Part shown: positions 18,643 through 63,521 of the stretch, one piece after another
Numbering within the stretch: the first letter of the stretch is position 1
Layout of the letters: every line of letters starts with the position of its first letter
Source of the DNA: Alphaproteobacteria bacterium
GTDB taxonomy: Bacteria > Pseudomonadota > Alphaproteobacteria > JACZXZ01
Direction: 5' to 3'
Length of the DNA stretch: 64,000 nucleotides
Assembly (NCBI GenBank): GCA_035625915.1
Contig: DASPOR010000117.1
Location: 3,700-67,699, forward strand
Notes under the pieces: model-generated
Told to the model about the DNA's origin: nothing
Databases searched by the model: none
What the model saw: only the letters and a program-made list of their open reading frames with translations
Program-made: the position numbers and the translations under genes

Positions 18643-20262
18643 CTACTTAATGCGTTCGAGCAAAACCGCAATTCCCCCACTGGTACTTCCAACCCCTAAC
18701 CTGATAACGCCCCGGAACCTGTCTTTGTCAAAGTTGCCCGATACCGGCATCTCTCCAACTTTTCCTGTAAACGAGCCGTCGCTAGCAATGTTCCCCGAAA
18801 ACGACATTTGACCCCTCTGACCTTTGAGTTGCCCGGATACTGTGTTGTTAGCGACCGTTACCATGATGTCCCCATCACAGTAACCTGCGGCTTGGCAGTT
18901 GCCGCGAAGAGAAGACCCCTTCCATGCGCCGTCATATAGTTTGTTGGGAGAAGGCGAGCTCGTGACTATTTTGCTTACATCGGGCGCGACCAATACCTGT
19001 TGCTGAGACGGGGCGATCGAAGCAGCAGGAGAAGTCGGCGCTACAGCGATGGCTTGCTGTTGTGGTGCGGGGACCGGCGCGGTCGAAGTCGAGGCGCCCA
19101 CAGGAACTGGCGCCTCGCGGTCCGGCATCGGAGACGGAACTGTCTTAGTCGCCGCGGCCTGCTGCTTCAGTGCGGGGGTCGGCGTAGTCGAAGTCGAGGC
19201 ACCCGTAGAGGCCGGCGGCACGTGTGTTGGACTTGGGTACGCACTTGTTTTGTTCGCCGCGGCCTGCTGCTGAGGCTTCGATTTCGGGGCGGCCGGGATC
19301 GGCTCGGTCGTACTGACTGGCGGCGGAGATTCCGGCGTGAGCACCCACAGGCGCTGCCGCGCCAGCTCGGCGACAGCACCGGTCGGGAACAGCCGTAGGT
19401 ACGCCTCATAATCCGCTGGATCGGCACTGTTTCGGATTGCCTCCCAAACTTGGGCGTCGAGCGGCGGCAGGTCCTTCGTGGATTCAGGCAGCGAAGATGC
19501 GGCCTGAACGGCGGACTGGGGAGCACTCGGTGTCGAGCCGGTTTCAATGACGGATGCAGCATGCTGCATGTAGAAGGCACCGGCGGCGCCGATCACAATG
19601 AGAAATGCCGCTCCCGCGATCAGTTTGGTTCGCTGCGACTGCCGAGCGGCTGCAATGCGATGACGCTCCAATCGCAGCCGATAGATCCGCACGGGCTCCG
19701 TGATGTTCCTGACCCGCTGCTTGCCGAGGAACTTGCACGGGAGCGTGATCTTGTTTTGGACCTGGTCGAACACTGTGCCGGAGATATTGATCGAGCCTGG
19801 TCGTGCCAGGTTTTCCAGGCGGGCGGCGATGATCACGCCGTCGCCGTAAATATCCTCCTCGTCGACGATAACGTCGCCGAGATTGATGCCGACGCGAAAC
19901 TCCATCCGCTGGTCCTTCGGCGTGCTCGCGTCGCGCTCGACCATGCCGTGTTGCACTTCGATAGCGCAACGCACCGCCTCGACGACGCTCGGGAACTCGA
20001 CGAGTACACCGTCGCCGGTCGACTTGACCGTTCGCCCGTGGTGTTCCCTGATTTTCGGGTCAATCAGCTCGCGGCGGTGGGCTTTCAGACGTGAGTGCGT
20101 CCCCTCCTCGTCCGCCTCCATCAACCGACTGTAGCCGGCGACATCGGCAGCCAAGACGGCGGCAATCCTACGCTCGGCGGGCTGTAATTCCACGGCATCG
20201 TCTCCAAGCCGTGGAAAAAGTTGTAGCACGCACTTTGCTGCCGCCTGCGTGATTGATTTCAC
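18643..20262 (-). CDS. membrane-anchored class III adenylate/guanylate cyclase-domain protein with periplasmic Pro/Thr/Ala-rich repeat region and C-terminal unknown domain
   Basis: N-terminal cyclase homology domain (AAVLAADVAGYS...KSTGDGVLVEF...GINLGDV...GDGVIIAARLE), one TM helix (LIAGAAFLIVIGAAGAF), then low-complexity repeats (STSTTPTPALKQQAAATKT / STSTAPVPAPQQQAIA), then a roughly 100-aa Cys-containing C-terminal domain. Confidence 0.7.
   Translation of the reverse strand: MKSITQAAAKCVLQLFPRLGDDAVELQPAERRIAAVLAADVAGYSRLMEADEEGTHSRLKAHRRELIDPKIREHHGRTVKSTGDGVLVEFPSVVEAVRCAIEVQHGMVERDASTPKDQRMEFRVGINLGDVIVDEEDIYGDGVIIAARLENLARPGSINISGTVFDQVQNKITLPCKFLGKQRVRNITEPVRIYRLRLERHRIAAARQSQRTKLIAGAAFLIVIGAAGAFYMQHAASVIETGSTPSAPQSAVQAASSLPESTKDLPPLDAQVWEAIRNSADPADYEAYLRLFPTGAVAELARQRLWVLTPESPPPVSTTEPIPAAPKSKPQQQAAANKTSAYPSPTHVPPASTGASTSTTPTPALKQQAAATKTVPSPMPDREAPVPVGASTSTAPVPAPQQQAIAVAPTSPAASIAPSQQQVLVAPDVSKIVTSSPSPNKLYDGAWKGSSLRGNCQAAGYCDGDIMVTVANNTVSGQLKGQRGQMSFSGNIASDGSFTGKVGEMPVSGNFDKDRFRGVIRLGVGSTSGGIAVLLERIK
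19044..19285. repeat. approximately 105-bp degenerate tandem DNA repeat (about 2.3 units) inside the cyclase gene
   Basis: ggcttgctgttgtggtgcggggaccggcgcggtcgaagtcgaggcgccc... is repeated as ggcctgctgcttcagtgcgggggtcggcgtagtcgaagtcgaggcaccc..., then a third partial cgccgcggcctgctgctgagg. It encodes the Pro/Thr-rich protein repeats. Confidence 0.6.
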
Positions 20263-20667: not shown

Positions 20668-20913
20668 ATGAGCATCTGGCAACGCCAAAAGCGGCCTGAA
20701 ATTTCGGAAGGAGCCGCCTTCCGTCACCCTCAACCCGGTGCGGTCACCGAGACCGCTCGTGTCCTCTCGCTCTGCAGCGACCCGCTCGGCATACCCCACG
20801 TCCGCTTCATGGTGAGCTACGAGAAGAGCGAGCGCACGATCCTCGAGGACGGACCGCGCATCCTCTCCCTGACGGCGTTTGCTTCCCGTTACCGCGAGCC
20901 CTCCGCCGCCTAG
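20668..20913 (+). CDS. small hypothetical protein
   Basis: 81-aa ORF in an otherwise empty intergenic region, co-directional with the following two small genes. No family recognised, weak support. Confidence 0.3.
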   Translation: MSIWQRQKRPEISEGAAFRHPQPGAVTETARVLSLCSDPLGIPHVRFMVSYEKSERTILEDGPRILSLTAFASRYREPSAA

Positions 20914-34667: not shown

Positions 34668-36899
34668 CTACTTCGTGAGCGCCACGTAAACCCCGTCCCA
34701 GTCCGCCGGCGGAGGGGCCTTCTCGAAATCCGCAAGGCGTTCCTCATAGACCCCATAGAACGCCTGAAGCATTTCCGGCGCTTCGGCACGGCTCGCTTCG
34801 AGCGCTTGGCGTGCCCGCGCCCAATCCTTGGCGCGATAAGCCGCGATGAGGGCGTCGTGGTCCGCCTTGAGCGCTGAAAAGGTCGGATTGCCCGACATCG
34901 TCTCATCGCCCAGGAGCGCGAATATGCGGACCGGCTGGGTCTTGCCCTTGACACGGATGAGGTCGAGTTCCAATGCCGCGAGTGCGGACGCCGAAGCCGC
35001 GGTCGTCTCGCCGATCACGATGTCGACGCCGTATGTCTTCGACTGACCCTCGAGCCTCGAGGCGAGGTTCACGTCGTCGCCTAGGACCGAATAATCGAAC
35101 CGCTGATCCGATCCCATGTTGCCCACACAGCAGACGCCGGTATTGAGGCCGATGCCGACGCGCACCTCGTGAAAGGCCTTGCCCTCGGCTTGCGCCTGGT
35201 GGCGCCACTCGTCGTTGAGGCGGACGAGGTCGGCACGCATGCTGAGTGCGGCGCGGCAAGCGCTGAGCGCATGTGCCGGATCGTCGAGTGGGGCGTTCCA
35301 GAACGCCATGATCGCGTCGCCCATGTATTTATCGATCGTCCCGCCGGAGGCGAGGATGAGATCGGTCATGGGTGTGAGGAAGCTGTTGATGAAGCGCGTC
35401 AGGCCGTGAGCGTCGAAGCCCTCGGCGATCGTGGTAAAGCCGCGAATATCGCAGAACATGAGCGTCATCTCGCGCATTTCGCCGCCGAGCTTAAGTCTTT
35501 CAGGGTGGTTTGCGAGTTGCGTGACGATGGCAGGCGCCAAATATCGACTGAACGCGGTTCGCACGCGTCGGCGCTCCGCTTCGGTGCGCAGATAGAGAAT
35601 GGCGGACGACGAAAGATAAACGAGAAGCACGACGAGCGAGGGAGTCACGGGATCGAGCAGGAGCTTGTACTGGCTATAGGCGTAGACCGAGACGCCGACC
35701 GCCGCTACCAGCGCCCCCGCACCGACGAGTGCAGCCCATTGTGCGCCGACCTTGGGCAGCCGCGCGGTGAGGAAGAGGCCGAGGCCTAGCATGTAGAGGA
35801 GTTCGAGCCCCGGCGCCCAGTCGGGCCGCTTGAGGTGATCGTCGAGCAGGATCTGTTCGACGAGCTGCGCATGCACTTCGACGCCGGGTGCGACCGGATC
35901 GAGCGGGGTCGAGCGAAGGTCGAGCAGACCGGCAGCACTTGCGCCGATGAAGACGATGCTGTCCTTGATCAGACTGCTGTCGAAGCCTGGCTCGAAGACC
36001 TTCCAAGCCGGCACGAAACGCTGCGCCACGTGGCCGGTATAGTGCACCCAGAGCCGGCCGTTCCCATCGGTTGGCACGATCAGGTCGCCGATCTTGATCG
36101 AATTGATGCCGGTGTGCGCGCCGAACGCCGTTTCCTGATTCGCACCCGAGGATTTGACGATATCCGTCTTAGCCCCTTGCGCCACCCGCAATGCCTCCGC
36201 GGCGAGGGTGGGATAGATCCGGGTCCCCATCGCAAGAAGAAGCGGCACGCGGCGCGTGATGCCGTCCAACTCGACAAGATCGGTGAAGGTACCGTTGCCG
36301 GTTGCGGCTGCCTCGAGGATCGGCAAATTCGTTACCGCACCCGGAAATCGGAACACGAAGGGATGGGGGTCGTCTCCGGCGAAGGCGAAGCTTGCCTTGG
36401 CGGCGGGCACGCGGGTACCGGTGCGCTGGTTGAGGGCAAAGCCCGTGGCAACGCGGGCGCGCTTCATCGCTTCGGCAAGCACTTCGTCGTGGTCGGGTAA
36501 GCTCTTGAGCCGCAATATCGCTGGATCGTCAGCCGGCAAGGCGCTCAGGTCCGCGAGCAGGCGCGTTGGCGAGGTACGGTCCGGCTCGGCGAAGACGATA
36601 TCGAACACGATCGCCGCAGCACCTAACTCATTGAGGCGATCCACGAGCTTGGCGACGAGCGTGCGCGGCCACGGCCATTGGCCGAGGCGCGAGAGGGATT
36701 CGTCGTCGAGGTCGACGATGCGCACGGGTGCTGGCTCATAGGCGCGCGGCTCCATGCGCAAATAGCTGTCGAAGACGAGGAATCGGAGCTGGGTGAGGAT
36801 TGCAGGTTCGCTATACCAGCCGGCTAAAGCGACCGCCATGATCGCGAGCGGCAAGGTCCAGTGAAGCTTCCGCTTGAGGTATCCCCACGCCCAATGCAT
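34668..36899 (-). CDS. CHASE2 sensor domain-containing class III adenylate/guanylate cyclase
   Basis: N-terminal TM + CHASE2 (QWPWPR motif), several TM helices, and a C-terminal cyclase domain (FCDIRGFTTIAEG...GDAIMAFW...GIGLNTG...GDDVNLASRLE). Confidence 0.8.
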   Translation of the reverse strand: MHWAWGYLKRKLHWTLPLAIMAVALAGWYSEPAILTQLRFLVFDSYLRMEPRAYEPAPVRIVDLDDESLSRLGQWPWPRTLVAKLVDRLNELGAAAIVFDIVFAEPDRTSPTRLLADLSALPADDPAILRLKSLPDHDEVLAEAMKRARVATGFALNQRTGTRVPAAKASFAFAGDDPHPFVFRFPGAVTNLPILEAAATGNGTFTDLVELDGITRRVPLLLAMGTRIYPTLAAEALRVAQGAKTDIVKSSGANQETAFGAHTGINSIKIGDLIVPTDGNGRLWVHYTGHVAQRFVPAWKVFEPGFDSSLIKDSIVFIGASAAGLLDLRSTPLDPVAPGVEVHAQLVEQILLDDHLKRPDWAPGLELLYMLGLGLFLTARLPKVGAQWAALVGAGALVAAVGVSVYAYSQYKLLLDPVTPSLVVLLVYLSSSAILYLRTEAERRRVRTAFSRYLAPAIVTQLANHPERLKLGGEMREMTLMFCDIRGFTTIAEGFDAHGLTRFINSFLTPMTDLILASGGTIDKYMGDAIMAFWNAPLDDPAHALSACRAALSMRADLVRLNDEWRHQAQAEGKAFHEVRVGIGLNTGVCCVGNMGSDQRFDYSVLGDDVNLASRLEGQSKTYGVDIVIGETTAASASALAALELDLIRVKGKTQPVRIFALLGDETMSGNPTFSALKADHDALIAAYRAKDWARARQALEASRAEAPEMLQAFYGVYEERLADFEKAPPPADWDGVYVALTK

Positions 36900-51525: not shown

Positions 51526-53400
51526 CTATACACCCGCTGCAACGGCGGCCTCTATCGCAAGACGGCGCGCCTCGGGCGCCAATCCAACCTTGCGCAGCGC
51601 CTCAACGCTCGCATCGAGCGCTACGGGATTGGTGCTCCCGGCTCCACCGGCGCCAGCCGCGATAAGTACGAGAAGCACCGTTTCGCCACGCCGGCTATCT
51701 GCTGCGGCGAATTTGAGCGCCTGCCATACGGCAATCGGCGGCATTGCCGCGGGCTCGTCCTCGGTCGAACCCAGGAGGGATTGCCAAGAAGTGCGGGGAA
51801 CCGGATTGCCCAAAGCGGCAAAGAGGCCCAGAAGCTGCGCAGCGCGCTCGTCGGCGAGTTTGGCGGGGGCGTCTTTCCGTGCAACCTGTGCGGCTCTCCA
51901 AGCGCTAAAGCGGTTCTCATCCCACGGCGTTGAGCTTTCCATGGCAAGGCACGTATAGGGCCAAAGCTCGACGGCAGCGTCGAGCAGCGTGCTACCGGCC
52001 CCGACCGCCTTGGGTGCGATCGCAACCCAATTTTGCGCGGCATTGACACGGCCGGCATAGAAGAGTGCGCGTGCGGCCTCCGGTGCGAAAAAGGCGAGTT
52101 CCGGCGCCGGTGCCATCGCTTCGATCAGCGGTAAGTTCACGGCAATCGCCAACGGGTAGACCCCGGCCGAACGGGCGAGCGAAAGTGCGGTACCGATCGC
52201 TTCGGCCTTGGCAGTCGGAACTTGCGCGTCTTTGGCGGCTCGATAGAGGCGTACGCGCGTTTTTGGGCCGTAATCCGTGTCCGCTTTACCAGCCGCCCCC
52301 GCGCCGTCGGCATCGGTTAGATTCGCCTTGTCGTAGATTTGCGCGAGCCTGTCGCCGGACATAGCACCGGCGAGCGTGGCACGCTCGGCTGCGGCCAAGC
52401 GAAGGTCGGGAGGTGTATCCGGGTTCTCGGCGATCGCGCGAAGGACGGCAGGCTCGGCCACGCGCAAGGCGTCCTCCCGCAGCTGTATCTTTGCCGCGCG
52501 CATCATCGCGAAATGCAGCGGCGTGACATTGGGCAAGGCGGTCAGCCGCACCCCCTTTTCGCCCATCACGGCGTTGAGAAGCATGAAGTAGGACGGGTCT
52601 TTGTCTTCACCTTCCTCGTGGAGAAGGCTCACGCCGATATCGACCTGCTGCGTCTTTTTTTCGCTTGCTTCGCAAAAGAGCTGCAGCTTTTGCCAATATA
52701 CCCCGGGGTACTTCCTGAGGAGCGAGCCCGCGTCGCGGCAGACGTCGGCTGGGGCGCCGTCGATCAGGCTCGCGTTGGTGCGCAGGCGCGCGAGCGTTTC
52801 GTCGTCGAAGGACGCGGGGATCACGGCCATCAACGACTTGAGCCCGTCGAGGTCGCCCATCTCCCCGAGCTTCTGGGCGCGAAGCGCAATGAGGCTGGCG
52901 CCCGAGTCGTCGGCTGCACCGGCGCTTGCGCCCTCGCGTTTAACCCCTTCCGGTCGATTGGCGTTCGAGAGCAGTAGCCGGTGCGCGAGATCGCGCAGCA
53001 CGGGCGAGCGGATTGACGAGGGCATCGCCGCAATCAGCGTCGTGACCGTACTATGGGGCGTGCCGCGCCAAAGATCGAGCCCGAGTCCGCCTTGACCCGG
53101 ATCGAGCGTGCCGAGCGCGTCATTGTCGAATCCGCCGAGCTTGTCGACTTCGATCCCTTTCGGCGATGCGACTCCGATCGGTGCGGCCGCCGGCGTGGCG
53201 GTGGGCACTTGGGGGGATAATGGCGCCTGGGAGCCCGCCCCTTCCGTCGCCAAGCCCTGTTCGGGAAGCTGAGACGACGGCTTGAGCGGAAGAAGCTGGA
53301 TCGGCGCACCTTGCGCCACGTTGGTATCGGCCGCGGCGGCGCCACTCGCCCAGAACGCGAGCAACAGCCCCGCCGCAACGCTAGCGGGGAAAGCGGTCAT
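51526..53400 (-). CDS. large conserved periplasmic hypothetical protein with signal peptide
   Basis: The start is taken at MTAFPASVAAGLLLAFWASGAAAA (signal peptide); the ORF-track upstream extension is unlikely. Ala-rich, no recognised domain. Occupies the xerD-[hyp]-aroK-aroB neighbourhood. Confidence 0.5.
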   Translation of the reverse strand: MTAFPASVAAGLLLAFWASGAAAADTNVAQGAPIQLLPLKPSSQLPEQGLATEGAGSQAPLSPQVPTATPAAAPIGVASPKGIEVDKLGGFDNDALGTLDPGQGGLGLDLWRGTPHSTVTTLIAAMPSSIRSPVLRDLAHRLLLSNANRPEGVKREGASAGAADDSGASLIALRAQKLGEMGDLDGLKSLMAVIPASFDDETLARLRTNASLIDGAPADVCRDAGSLLRKYPGVYWQKLQLFCEASEKKTQQVDIGVSLLHEEGEDKDPSYFMLLNAVMGEKGVRLTALPNVTPLHFAMMRAAKIQLREDALRVAEPAVLRAIAENPDTPPDLRLAAAERATLAGAMSGDRLAQIYDKANLTDADGAGAAGKADTDYGPKTRVRLYRAAKDAQVPTAKAEAIGTALSLARSAGVYPLAIAVNLPLIEAMAPAPELAFFAPEAARALFYAGRVNAAQNWVAIAPKAVGAGSTLLDAAVELWPYTCLAMESSTPWDENRFSAWRAAQVARKDAPAKLADERAAQLLGLFAALGNPVPRTSWQSLLGSTEDEPAAMPPIAVWQALKFAAADSRRGETVLLVLIAAGAGGAGSTNPVALDASVEALRKVGLAPEARRLAIEAAVAAGV

Positions 53401-53521
53401 TCGGTATGACCTTTTCGACCTTTGCTGTGGGGGCGGGAATATCCCAACTGGCGAGGAAGGCGACCCCGCCAGCCACGATGACCAGCACGGCGAGGGCGAT
53501 GATACGGGAAAGCTTGAACAT
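53381..53521 (-). CDS. possible small single-TM protein overlapping the start of the large periplasmic protein gene
   Basis: MFKLSRIIALAVLVIVAGGVAFLASWDIPAPTAKVEKVIPNDRFPR has one clear TM helix. Weak support; it could instead be part of an alternative start. Confidence 0.3.
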   Translation of the reverse strand: MFKLSRIIALAVLVIVAGGVAFLASWDIPAPTAKVEKVIPNDRFPR

Positions 53522-53770
53522 GCGCGTCCGTTCTTTATGTGATCGGCCTGCAGCGGGGATGCGCCGGTAGCTACGATCGCAGGCACCCACTGGCCCCTAG
53601 CGCCCGACGAACTCCCTATTAGCCGCTTTGGCGACACGCCGCGAGGCTTTGTGTTAGAGTTCCACTATGGCGATTTTACGGCACCTTTCGTCCCAAGCAA
53701 ACCAGGCAATGGAACTTTTGCCCGGCCTGGCGAGCGCTTGCTTTCGACCGAGACGCCCTGGAGGGGCCTC

Positions 53771-60495: not shown

Positions 60496-61500
60496 ATGAT
60501 TGCGAAAAGCCCAACGGGGGCACTCGAGTCCCCGCCTATCGGCAACCCGGATATCAGGGTCTCCGTGCGGCAGACCTTCGGGATCGACTTCGATATGGAC
60601 GTCCCCGCGTTCAGCCAGCCGACCGAGCTCGTGCCCGACCTCGACGAGGTCTACGTTTTCGACCGCGACACCACGCTCTCGATTCTCGCGGGCTTTGCCT
60701 ATAACCGCCGCGTCATCATCCAGGGCTATCACGGTACCGGCAAATCGACTCATATCGAGCAAGTCGCGGCACGGCTCAACTGGCCGTGCATCCGTGTCAA
60801 TCTCGACAGCCATATCAGCCGCATCGACCTCGTGGGCAAGGATGCGATCGTAATCCGCGACGGCAAGCAGGTGACCGAGTTTCGAGAGGGCCTGCTGCCG
60901 TGGGCGCTTCAGCATCCGACGGCCCTCGTGTTCGACGAGTACGACGCCGGGCGCCCGGACGTCATGTTCGTGATCCAGCGCGTGCTCGAGGTTGAGGGCA
61001 AGCTCACGCTCCTCGACCAGAACCGCGTGATCCGCCCCCATCCCGCCTTTCGCCTGTTCGCGACGGCGAACACGATCGGCCTCGGCGACACGACCGGCCT
61101 CTATCACGGCACCCAGCAGATCAATCAGGGCCAGATGGACCGCTGGAACATCGTGGCAACCCTCAACTATCTGCCCCACGACGAGGAGGTGAAGATCATC
61201 ATCGCCAAGGCGCCTTCCTATGACACCGAAGGGGGTAAAAAGACGATTTCGGCGATGGTAGCGCTTGCCGACCTCACGCGGAGCGGCTTCATCGCCGGCG
61301 ACATCTCGACCGTCATGTCGCCGCGCACCGTGATCACCTGGGCCGAGAACGCCGAGATCTTCCACGACATAGCCTTCGGCTTCCGCGTCACGTTCCTCAA
61401 CAAGTGCGACGAGGCGGAACGCGCGATCGTGGCCGAATATTATCAGCGTTGTTTCGGCACCGAGCTCGGCGAGTCGTCCGTCAAGGTGGGCTCGGCCTGA
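60496..61500 (+). CDS. cobS: cobaltochelatase subunit CobS-like AAA+ (MoxR-type) ATPase
   Basis: Walker [10 protein letters not shown], Walker B LVFDEYDA, and the CobS-specific N-terminus ([20 protein letters not shown]). Confidence 0.85.
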
Positions 61501-61516
61501 TCGGCCGGGAGCACCG

Positions 61517-63397
61517 ATGTCGGGAGATCGCAGCCAAGACAACCCCCTCGAGGAGTTCCGCCAGATAACGGCGGCGACGATGCGGGCGATCAGCCGCGAG
61601 CCCGAGGTGAGCGTCACCTTCTCCCCGGATCGCCCCTCGCTCGCCGGAACGGCCGCCCGCCTGCCCATGCCCTCGCGCGAGCTGCCACCCGGCGAAGTCG
61701 CGGTCGTGCGCGGCGAAGCCGACAGCTTCGCACTCCGCCTGCGTTACCACGACGCGGCCCTTCACGCAAAGCGCCAGCCCGCCGGCCCTACGGCGCGCGC
61801 GGTCTTCGACACAATCGAGCAGGTGCGCGTCGAGGCGTTGGGTGCTCGCACCATGGCGGGCGTTCAATCGAACCTTGCCGCCGCTCTCGTCGATCAGTGC
61901 CGCCAGCGCGGCTACGCCCGCGTTCACGCCAAGGAAGATGCCCCGATTCCCGACGTGATCGGCCTCCTCGCGCGCGAGGTCCTGATGGGGAACGCGACCC
62001 CACCCGCAGCACGGCGGATGGTCGATTTTTGGCGTTCCTCCCTCGAAAGCAAAGTGAGCCGGGACATCGCCGAGCTCGGCCGCTGCCTCGCCGACCAGGC
62101 GCACTACGCCGACGTGGCGCGCCAGCTCATCCGCGATCTCGAACTCGACGACGAGGACGCCTCCGATAGCGAGCTTGACGACGAAAACGCCGAAGGCGAG
62201 GACGCCTCGGCCGATGCCGACTCGGAAGCGGGCGACAGCGAGGGATCGAGTGCCGCCTCGGGCATGACCCAGGAGGCCCAGGAGGGTGCTTCGCGCGACG
62301 GCAGCGACGCCGACGCCGGAGAGGCCGAGGGCGAGATGATGCCCGGCTCGGGCGACGACGACTCGAGTCGGCCCGGACGCGCCGTCCGGCCGCTCGGCGA
62401 TTTGCGCAACGATCGCAACGAGCCTTATTACCGCGCCTTCACGGCCCAGTTCGACGAGACGGTCGAAGCCGACAAGCTGTGCGACCCACAGGAGTTGGCG
62501 CGGCTCAGGATGCATCTCGACCAGCAGCTTTCCAACCTGCAAGGGGTCATCACGCGGCTCGCCAACCGCCTGCAGCGCAAGTTGCTCGCGAAACAGACGC
62601 GCGCATGGGACTTCAACGTCGAGGAGGGCATTCTCGACACGGCGCGCCTTCACCGCGTTGTCGTCAATCCGGTCTTTCCGCTCTCCTATAAGATCGAGCG
62701 CGAGACCGAGTTCCGCGACACGGTGGTCACACTTCTCATCGACAATTCGGGCTCGATGCGCGGCCGGCCAATCACCGTCGCCGCGATGAGTGCCGACATC
62801 CTCGCGCGCACGCTCGAGCGCTGTGCCGTCAAAGTCGAGATCCTGGGCTTTACCACGCGCGCCTGGAAGGGCGGGCAGGCGCGCGAAAAATGGCTGGCCG
62901 AAGGCAAGCCACCTGGCCCCGGCCGGCTCAACGATCTGCGCCACATCATCTACAAGGCCGGCGACGCGCCCTGGCGGCGGGCGCGCAAAAACCTCGGCCT
63001 CATGCTCCGCGAAGGCATTCTCAAGGAAAACATCGACGGCGAAGCGCTTCTCTGGGCGCACAACCGGCTCATCGCGCGCACGGAGCAGCGCCGCATCCTC
63101 ATGGTGATTTCCGACGGCGCGCCTGTCGACGACTCGACCCTTTCGGTCAATCCGGGCAATTACCTCGAACGGCACCTTCGCGACGTGATCCAGTGGATCG
63201 AGCGCTATTCGCCGGTCGAGCTGGTCGCGATCGGCATCGGCCACGACGTGACGCGTTATTATAGCCGTGCGGTCACGATCGTGGATGCCGAGCAGCTCGG
63301 CGGCACCATGATGGAAAAACTCACCGAGCTCTTTGACGAGCAACAGGCAAAGCCGACACCCGGCCATCAGGTCCGCAAAATCCGCCGCGGACGCTGA
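61517..63397 (+). CDS. cobT: cobaltochelatase subunit CobT-like (acidic linker + C-terminal vWA domain)
   Basis: Asp/Glu-rich central segment ([25 protein letters not shown]) and C-terminal vWA/MIDAS ([11 protein letters not shown]). Confidence 0.85.
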
Positions 63398-63521
63398 GGG
63401 CTGGACGCCCCTCCGCAGCACGACCCATCCGGCAATGCCGGCGTGTTCCCCGCCTCCTCATCGAGCGCGGTACGATTCGATGCCATGCTATGCAGATCGC
63501 CCCGCCTGAGGGTGGGCGATC

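Follow-up and report, generated by a model that had tools for sequence, protein, structure and literature searches.

Does a membrane-anchored class III nucleotidyl cyclase which carries isoleucine in place of the transition-state asparagine still work as a receptor, and what kind of outer domain would regulate it? The question is raised by an open reading frame (ORF) at 18643-20262 on the minus strand of a stretch of 64,000 nucleotides from an alphaproteobacterium (assembly GCA_035625915.1, contig DASPOR010000117.1, positions 3,700 to 67,699), which is called the window here and which was analyzed as a follow-up of an earlier note on the same DNA. The ORF is a real and conserved gene, and the explanation which we regard as probable, though not strongly so, is that it encodes a single-pass receptor-type adenylate cyclase with a swapped ectodomain, weakened by Ile144. 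Residue numbers follow the 539-codon numbering (from GTG 20262) throughout.

Catalytic domain and the substitution at position 144

The N-terminal part of the protein was assigned by Pfam, in which Guanylate_cyc (PF00211) covers residues 35-169 (39.9 bits, gathering score 21.9, E 4.3e-10) and is the sole Pfam domain found, and NCBIfam gives partial cyclase-domain matches only. Among the solved structures the closest is 3mr7, the N-terminal cyclase domain of a Silicibacter pomeroyi protein, which aligns without gaps over residues 29-195 (E 4e-50), followed by Ma1120 as the second-best relative (E 8e-14), and Rv1900c and Rv1264 were matched as well. Both metal Asp residues and the transition-state Arg, which the earlier note had reported as present, were found again as D40 (in AADVAGYS) and D84 (in TGDGVLV), each opposite an Asp of 3mr7 and of Ma1120 in the alignment, and as R148 (in AARLE). 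The substrate pair K80/D137 corresponds by alignment to K101/D157 of Ma1120 and is of the ATP type (Lys/Asp), which predicts ATP as the substrate. All catalytic residues other than the one at the Asn position are in place.

At the Asn position the earlier proposal of an Ile was confirmed by alignment. GDAVNVAARLE of 3mr7 lies over GDGVIIAARLE, I144 falls on A164 of Ma1120, and K80/D137/I144/R148 of the query superpose on K101/D157/A164/R168 of Ma1120 with the spacing given in PMC4215837. The possibility that the Asn sits one position away was checked in the same alignment, and there is no Asn within three residues of I144. The change from AAC to ATC is a single transversion. Asn is found in 117 of the 120 best homologues, Ile occurs only in the cluster of the query, and two homologues gave no match to the search pattern; all six relatives which have the full architecture (P0002-P0007, 56-71% identical) read GDGVN[IV]AARL.

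The Ile allele was tracked in other assemblies. All four sequences that make up the 90% cluster carry it, namely two from JGI, the protein HYB09870.1 ('Alphaproteobacteria bacterium') from an NCBI metagenome-assembled genome and one from ENA/Logan, and so do contigs of ERZ27251285, SRR7004202 and SRR7004198. This makes at least five independent assemblies from several projects, with Ile in every assembly sampled, and because the same base recurs in independent assemblies Ile144 is genuine and not a sequencing error. When metagenome contigs were searched with the 39-nt motif itself, carrying either A or T at the decisive base, there were zero matches and even the sequence of the window was missed, so that this negative says nothing about polymorphism at the base.

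The sequences of the same species are near-clonal, with 0-1 synonymous differences per 1551 bp, 99.93% identity over 7.5 kb and unchanged gene order. The Ile is therefore fixed in one shallow population, in which selection since the change is not readable. When the domain was compared with the six full-length relatives, 6 of the 164 aligned cyclase columns held substitutions private to the query (I78T, T81S, A108V, I120M, N144I and V193I), of which only N144I is radical and the other five are conservative, and the relative P0006 has 18 private changes with the Asn still there. The private changes being few and mostly conservative, and P0006 keeping its Asn with 18 of them, the cyclase domain is free of general decay. 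By these comparisons N144I is a derived, population-wide and recent change in an Asn-type background.

Domain order and topology

The order of cyclase domain, transmembrane (TM) helix, Pro/Thr-rich stretch and C-terminal domain, as first read from the letters alone, is borne out by Pfam, hydropathy, composition and structure prediction. The KD19 maximum of 2.16 at residues 214-232 marks the sole strongly hydrophobic stretch outside the cyclase domain, and seven Lys/Arg residues lie in the 20 positions before the helix and none in the 20 after it. From this charge count we infer a single-pass inner-membrane protein with N-in/C-out topology, in agreement with the periplasmic placement of the C-terminal region which had been proposed. 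The signs of export in the small stand-alone relatives of the C-terminal barrel (see below), and P0013, in which the three-helix unit, linker and barrel likewise come after a TM helix, also speak for this topology.

The cyclase-first order had also been called an unusual 'inverted topology', and this did not hold, as it is the norm for the subfamily. The catalytic motif lies within the first 170 residues in 114 of the 118 close homologues that have the motif, and a TM-like segment comes directly after it in 71 of the 116 homologues with at least 150 residues downstream, most of which then carry TPR and 'TolB-like' regions; the arrangement is therefore ordinary for the subfamily. Cyclase domains with C-terminal TPR or helix-turn-helix (HTH) extensions have already been published (PMC9552081), and for AC-YHS of Mycobacterium phlei it has been shown experimentally that a C-terminal YHS copper sensor regulates the N-terminal cyclase (PMC4626032).

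The full architecture of the window protein was found in seven 90% clusters among 5.8 billion proteins. The combination of cyclase, three-helix unit, spacer and barrel is confined to a narrow clade, because just one representative cluster of the barrel family (P0005) carries the cyclase fusion. One further protein, P0013 (850 aa, from a JGI contig of 14.8 kb), has a cyclase, a TM helix and a TolB-like/TPR region and then continues with the three-helix unit, the Pro-rich spacer and the barrel seen in the window protein; its gene is either recombinant or a chimera produced in assembly. When contigs of GTDB species representatives were searched with the ectodomain alignment, nothing close to the ectodomain in its full length was found; the best match, at 31% identity, is a caspase-like protein, and most of the matches were to the three-helix unit inside unrelated proteins.

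Modules of the ectodomain

The stretch after the TM helix had been described as about 230 low-complexity residues. A Pro-rich spacer of about 130 residues is indeed there, and a conserved three-helix unit of 43 residues, which lies inside the stretch, had been missed. Residues 266-308 are the most conserved part of the ectodomain among the seven relatives, and an AlphaFold2 model of the unit (19 sequences) gives three helices with a mean pLDDT of 87 and a core of at least 93. No significant fold match was obtained for the unit with Foldseek, the nearest shapes being TPR units of BcsC, BamD, LbcA and YbgF, and no Pfam or NCBIfam model matches it. The motif FWxSIxxSxxPADFEAYLxxFPxGxFxxLAxNRL was located at 80 loci in Alphaproteobacteria, Vicinamibacterales, Chloroflexota, Binatia and others, and a word-indexed search with a 55-aa profile of the unit gave only 2 matches.

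Pfam families were counted in 75 carriers of the unit and are Peptidase_C14 (33), FGE-sulfatase (27), PG_binding_1 (22), DUF4189 (20), SH3_3 (9) and TIR_2 (7), and most carriers start with an N-terminal hydrophobic leader. The carriers (loci L004-L083) have caspase, TIR or CHAT domains N-terminally and FGE-sulfatase, PG_binding_1, DUF4189 or SH3 domains C-terminally. Four Hyphomonadaceae proteins with TIR, the unit, a TM helix and FGE-sulfatase (L018:3801-5393, L066:5539-7059, L075:4311-5981 and L080:5437-7053) parallel the cyclase in having a cytoplasmic enzyme and an outer binding domain, with the unit on the opposite side of the membrane. The caspase-like protein at L004:5020-6744 holds two three-helix units and a barrel with an in-frame stop in the second unit, which is due either to a pseudogene or to a sequencing error.

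The spacer varies in length among the relatives (total protein length 468-587 aa), P0006 having extra units, and a 105-bp DNA tandem repeat had been reported in it. The repeat is real in the dot-plot, where offset 105 gives 63 of 90 matches in the best window, the next-best offset giving 48 and codon shuffles of the region a mean of 44 and a maximum of 51; it consists, however, of just two degenerate copies (19271-19156 and 19166-19051), which are identical at 82 of 116 positions (71%) with a longest identical run of 18 nt, and no 105-bp repeat was reported by Tandem Repeats Finder or by a second repeat search. The further suggestion of a length-variable locus was not supported when repeat number was compared, as the length is identical in the four cluster members and three further contigs, and copy number varies only between relatives at 56-71% identity and not within the species. 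Since the copies are 71% identical with at most an 18-nt shared run and no length difference is seen within the species, the repeat is an old duplication in a fast-evolving spacer and not a contingency locus of the variable number tandem repeat (VNTR) type.

The C-terminal domain, which could not be assigned from the letters, also has no curated family match in Pfam or NCBIfam. It opens with YDGAWKG, and an AlphaFold2 model (52 sequences) gives eight consecutive strands with a mean pLDDT of 87.6. The top Foldseek match is the C-terminal barrel of NHBA (5o1r, E 7.7e-4, TM-score 0.58), and TbpB, Cap15, nitrobindin, lipocalins and fatty-acid-binding proteins were also matched. On the predicted structure we conclude that the domain is an up-and-down barrel with eight strands and that its family is uncurated. 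The family profile compared with PDB sequences gives hemophilin (E 0.0023) and TbpB (E 0.024), with alignments that sit on the patterns Y-x-G-x-W, f-V-x-f..k-i-x-G-k-l and I..dG-x-F-x-G. A Pfam scan of 52 members yielded sub-threshold matches only, to DUF4923 (lipocalin-like; 0.0069 in 3 members), TbpB_B_D (0.057 in 1) and HpuA. The barrel may be distantly related to that of TbpB and hemophilin, which is reported to act in the targeting of cargo proteins for type 11 secretion (PMC12282271), and lipocalin-like barrels score about the same as TbpB-type barrels for this family. A Slam/DUF560 outer-membrane partner was not seen among the 30 ORFs scanned, all of them in the window. MORN repeats (suggested by a YDGEWKG start) and DUF4189 were considered as identities of the barrel and are absent from the Pfam scans of the 52 members.

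The distribution of the barrel family was determined by an exhaustive search of 1.84 billion representatives with a profile of seven relatives (E <=0.001), and 143 representative clusters were obtained. Most members are proteins of 115-130 aa, and among 100 such small stand-alone members 89 begin with a hydrophobic leader, while in 94 two Cys residues lie more than 50 residues apart; the leader and the long-range Cys pair therefore indicate export of the small members. In the cyclase branch the C-terminal Cys is lost, and the domain mostly has a local C-x4-8-C pair or is free of Cys. The Cys which had been noted in the window domain is accordingly there, as a C-x5-C pair in the first loop, but it is not conserved among the relatives. 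The barrel also occurs in tandem pairs, in giant repeat proteins and at the C-terminal end of caspase-like proteins which have the three-helix unit, and on P0137, P0157, P0187, P0200 and the loci L004 and L006-L008 the unit, linker and barrel occur together on caspase-like proteins. As a tandem repeat unit the barrel was observed in P0127 (3576 aa), P0138, P0151, P0158, P0184 and P0242, with 7-17 profile-matching stretches.

Explanations for the receptor and for Ile144

In the explanation that we favour the protein would belong to a large subfamily of alphaproteobacterial class III adenylate cyclases with a cytoplasmic catalytic domain first, then a TM helix and a putative sensor in the periplasm, and in its small clade the TolB-like/TPR ectodomain would have been replaced by the three-helix unit, the Pro-rich spacer of about 130 residues and the 8-stranded barrel. 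The active sites of class III cyclases form by pairing of two catalytic domains, and the ectodomain may control the output of cyclic AMP (cAMP) via the pairing of TM-anchored monomers, the candidate trigger being the binding of a periplasmic or envelope ligand by the barrel or by the three-helix unit. The domain make-up, the N144I change and the distribution of the modules are direct observations, and the regulation through dimers and the dependence on a ligand are, like the topology, what we infer from them. Ile144 would remove a side chain which normally helps to hold the ribose in the transition state. Rv1900c has His at this position and keeps low activity. The consequence of Ile144 is most likely a weakened rather than a dead enzyme, which is favoured because Ma1120 works with a natural Ala (A164) at the Asn site and its activity is drastically lowered when Asn is introduced (PMC4215837).

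Several points weigh against this explanation. Mutation of the conserved Asn in mammalian adenylyl cyclase severely impairs catalysis, as reported by Yan et al. 1997 (cited in PMC4215837), and an Ile, being bulky, may be less well accommodated than the Ala found in Ma1120. The sampled genomes with Ile are all 99.93% identical, which leaves no evolutionary depth for reading selection since N144I. The scores which connect the barrel with those of the TbpB type are marginal (E 8e-4 to 0.02, TM-score 0.58), and the results point to no particular ligand of the barrel or of the unit. In the Hyphomonadaceae proteins the order is TIR, unit, TM helix and FGE-sulfatase, so that the unit stands before the TM helix and is not strictly periplasmic. 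The neighbours of the gene are housekeeping genes which are not conserved with P0002 and give no functional clue, and no biochemical work was found on members of the subfamily, nor experimental papers on cyclase-TM-TPR proteins.

A dead pseudo-cyclase, in which Ile144 abolishes turnover and the protein acts by binding, e.g. as a heterodimer partner, a decoy or an ATP-binding membrane scaffold, is unlikely. Just one position is changed in one near-clonal population, and this weighs against such a role because established pseudoenzymes usually have several degraded catalytic positions, conserved as such across species. Heterodimerisation is without support, and the Asn is dispensable in Ma1120. 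The intact nucleotide- and metal-binding residues would nevertheless suit a binding-competent pseudoenzyme, and the Asn, kept in 117 of 120 homologues, is essential in the mammalian enzyme according to the report cited in PMC4215837. A second class III cyclase, 15 kb away in the window (34668-36899, minus strand, 743 aa), in the usual sensor-first order with CHASE2 followed by Guanylate_cyc and with a canonical GDDVNLASRLE motif, and the dozens of cyclases in Alphaproteobacteria (37 in Bradyrhizobium japonicum and 28 in Sinorhizobium meliloti; PMC1183210) also speak for it.

Somewhat less probable again is that one of many redundant cyclase genes has recently acquired a loss-of-function allele, neutral or slightly harmful, which has drifted to fixation and has set the gene on its way to a pseudogene. 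The single-base change, its restriction to one population with so few synonymous differences, the Asn of the nearest relative (71% identity) and the plausible redundancy are all as expected from such an allele. The reading frame is, however, neither shifted nor truncated nor interrupted by a stop, the private changes apart from N144I are conservative, and Ile is present in every assembly sampled across several projects.

It seems improbable that the protein is an adenylate cyclase with full function, which tolerates the Ile without any qualitative consequence and may have its activity tuned by it. The active wild-type Ma1120 with its Ala and the otherwise canonical active site argue for it, but Ma1120 has a background which evolved around Ala, whereas the background here is that of enzymes with Asn, the cyclase domains of the six full-length relatives being about 70-80% identical to that of the window protein, and Ile is beta-branched and bulkier than Ala.

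We consider it most improbable that the three-helix unit is the hallmark of a wide and so far undescribed group of proteins for surveillance of the envelope, in which an enzymatic output (caspase-like, TIR, CHAT or cyclase) is coupled to a binding domain that can be exchanged (FGE-sulfatase/C-type-lectin fold, peptidoglycan-binding, DUF4189, SH3 or 8-stranded barrel). In that case the cyclase would supply the second-messenger output, the spacer would let the TbpB-like barrel reach or thread through the outer membrane, and the protein with Ile144 would serve as a decoy or as an attenuated copy.

Comparison with known systems

The nearest known proteins are the cyclase-TM-TolB-like/TPR proteins (JGI 'TolB-like protein/class 3 adenylate cyclase'; 3mr7), which have the same catalytic subtype at 62-69% identity, with the catalytic domain first, in most members a single TM helix next and the remainder extracytoplasmic. 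The window protein differs from them in having no TolB-like or TPR Pfam match at E up to 1, in its ectodomain of three-helix unit, spacer and barrel and in having Ile for Asn144, and P0013 combines both types. With Ma1120 of Mycobacterium avium (4wp8 and others) it shares the K/D pair, the Arg and the lack of a transition-state Asn, but Ma1120 is a soluble single-domain enzyme with Ala, in which the non-Asn state is native and adapted, whereas the Ile of the window protein is a recent change.

N-terminal catalysis with a C-terminal regulatory domain is also found in AC-YHS of M. phlei, in Rv0386 (HTH) and in a Roseiflexus cyclase (terminal TPR) (PMC4626032, PMC9552081); these are cytoplasmic with short linkers, whereas in the window protein a TM helix and a long spacer lie between the parts. 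The barrels of TbpB, hemophilin, NHBA and fHbp (type 11 secretion/Slam cargo) resemble the window domain in the predicted 8-stranded C-terminal meander and the sequence pattern, but the window protein has no handle domain and no lipoprotein signal, is predicted to be anchored in the inner membrane and is unmatched by Pfam TbpB_B_D. The secreted metacaspase-like proteins (Peptidase_C14 with FGE-sulfatase, PG_binding_1, DUF4189 or SH3), whose domain architectures are surveyed in PMC3501461, share the three-helix unit and in a subset the whole unit-linker-barrel; they carry a caspase-like peptidase behind a signal peptide, whereas the window protein has a cytoplasmic cyclase behind a TM anchor.

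Gene model, feature coordinates and neighbourhood

The true start of the gene is probably GTG 20193, which gives a 516-aa protein. This start (V24, 23 codons downstream of GTG 20262) is the choice of the gene callers in four public sources, it has GGAGA 7 nt upstream, and the N-termini of the relatives fall near it in the alignment; at GTG 20262 a purine run GGGAG lies only 3 nt upstream. The later start is judged likelier because of the spacing of GGAGA, the database calls and the starts of the relatives. The features of the ORF are collected in Table 1.

Table 1. Features of the cyclase gene in the window, with coordinates, strand and the evidence for each.
Feature	Position	Strand	Evidence
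Maximal ORF, 539 codons from GTG 20262; stop codon 18643-18645	18643..20262	-	Uninterrupted reading frame
Class III nucleotidyl cyclase homology domain, residues 29-195, predicted cytoplasmic	19678..20178	-	Matches to PF00211, 3mr7, Ma1120, Rv1900c and Rv1264
Ile144 codon ATC at the transition-state Asn position	19831..19833	-	Sequence; alignment to 3mr7 GDAVNVAARLE
Single transmembrane helix, residues 214-232, LIAGAAFLIVIGAAGAFYM	19567..19623	-	Hydropathy; charge count; conserved in relatives
Three-helix TPR-like unit, residues 266-308, PPLDAQVWEAIRNSADPADYEAYLRLFPTGAVAELARQRLWVL	19339..19467	-	Near-invariant in seven relatives; AlphaFold2
Pro/Ala/Ser/Thr/Gln-rich spacer, about 130 residues, 21% Pro, predicted periplasmic	18943..19338	-	Composition
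Degenerate tandem duplication in the spacer, 2 x 105 bp (35 aa), 71% identity	19051..19271	-	Dot-plot
Predicted 8-stranded up-and-down beta-barrel, residues about 441-539	18646..18942	-	AlphaFold2; Foldseek; family profile

The gene looks monocistronic. On one flank lie xseA, purD and a convergent MBL-fold hydrolase, and on the other an 81-aa ORF without family, a glyoxalase-fold protein, msrB and a deaminase. The 81-aa ORF (20668-20913, plus strand) is upstream of and divergent from the cyclase gene, is called as a gene in the same-species contigs and has no family match. The neighbourhood of P0002 differs from that of the window and synteny is absent, and P0002 can therefore not be called a positional orthologue. 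Elsewhere in the window two long ORFs, 51526-53637 (703 aa) and 61481-63421 (646 aa), both on the minus strand, have no Pfam match at E <=1e-5, and the latter overlaps a 626-aa ORF on the opposite strand, one of the pair being probably no gene.

Significance of the findings

The cyclase-first membrane architecture is already known and common, and what is new here is this ectodomain and the N144I state; the general understanding of cyclases is unchanged by these findings. The most useful by-product is the three-helix unit and the barrel, which are widespread and absent from Pfam and NCBIfam and are hence candidates for curation. The natural N144I change together with the Asn-bearing relative at 71% identity forms a ready pair for probing the need for the 'invariant' Asn. 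The class III cyclases of Alphaproteobacteria number dozens and the signals of almost all of them are unknown, and this clade provides a compact case, in which the modules common to the cyclase and to secreted caspase-like and TIR proteins point to a shared uncharacterised envelope ligand or partner.

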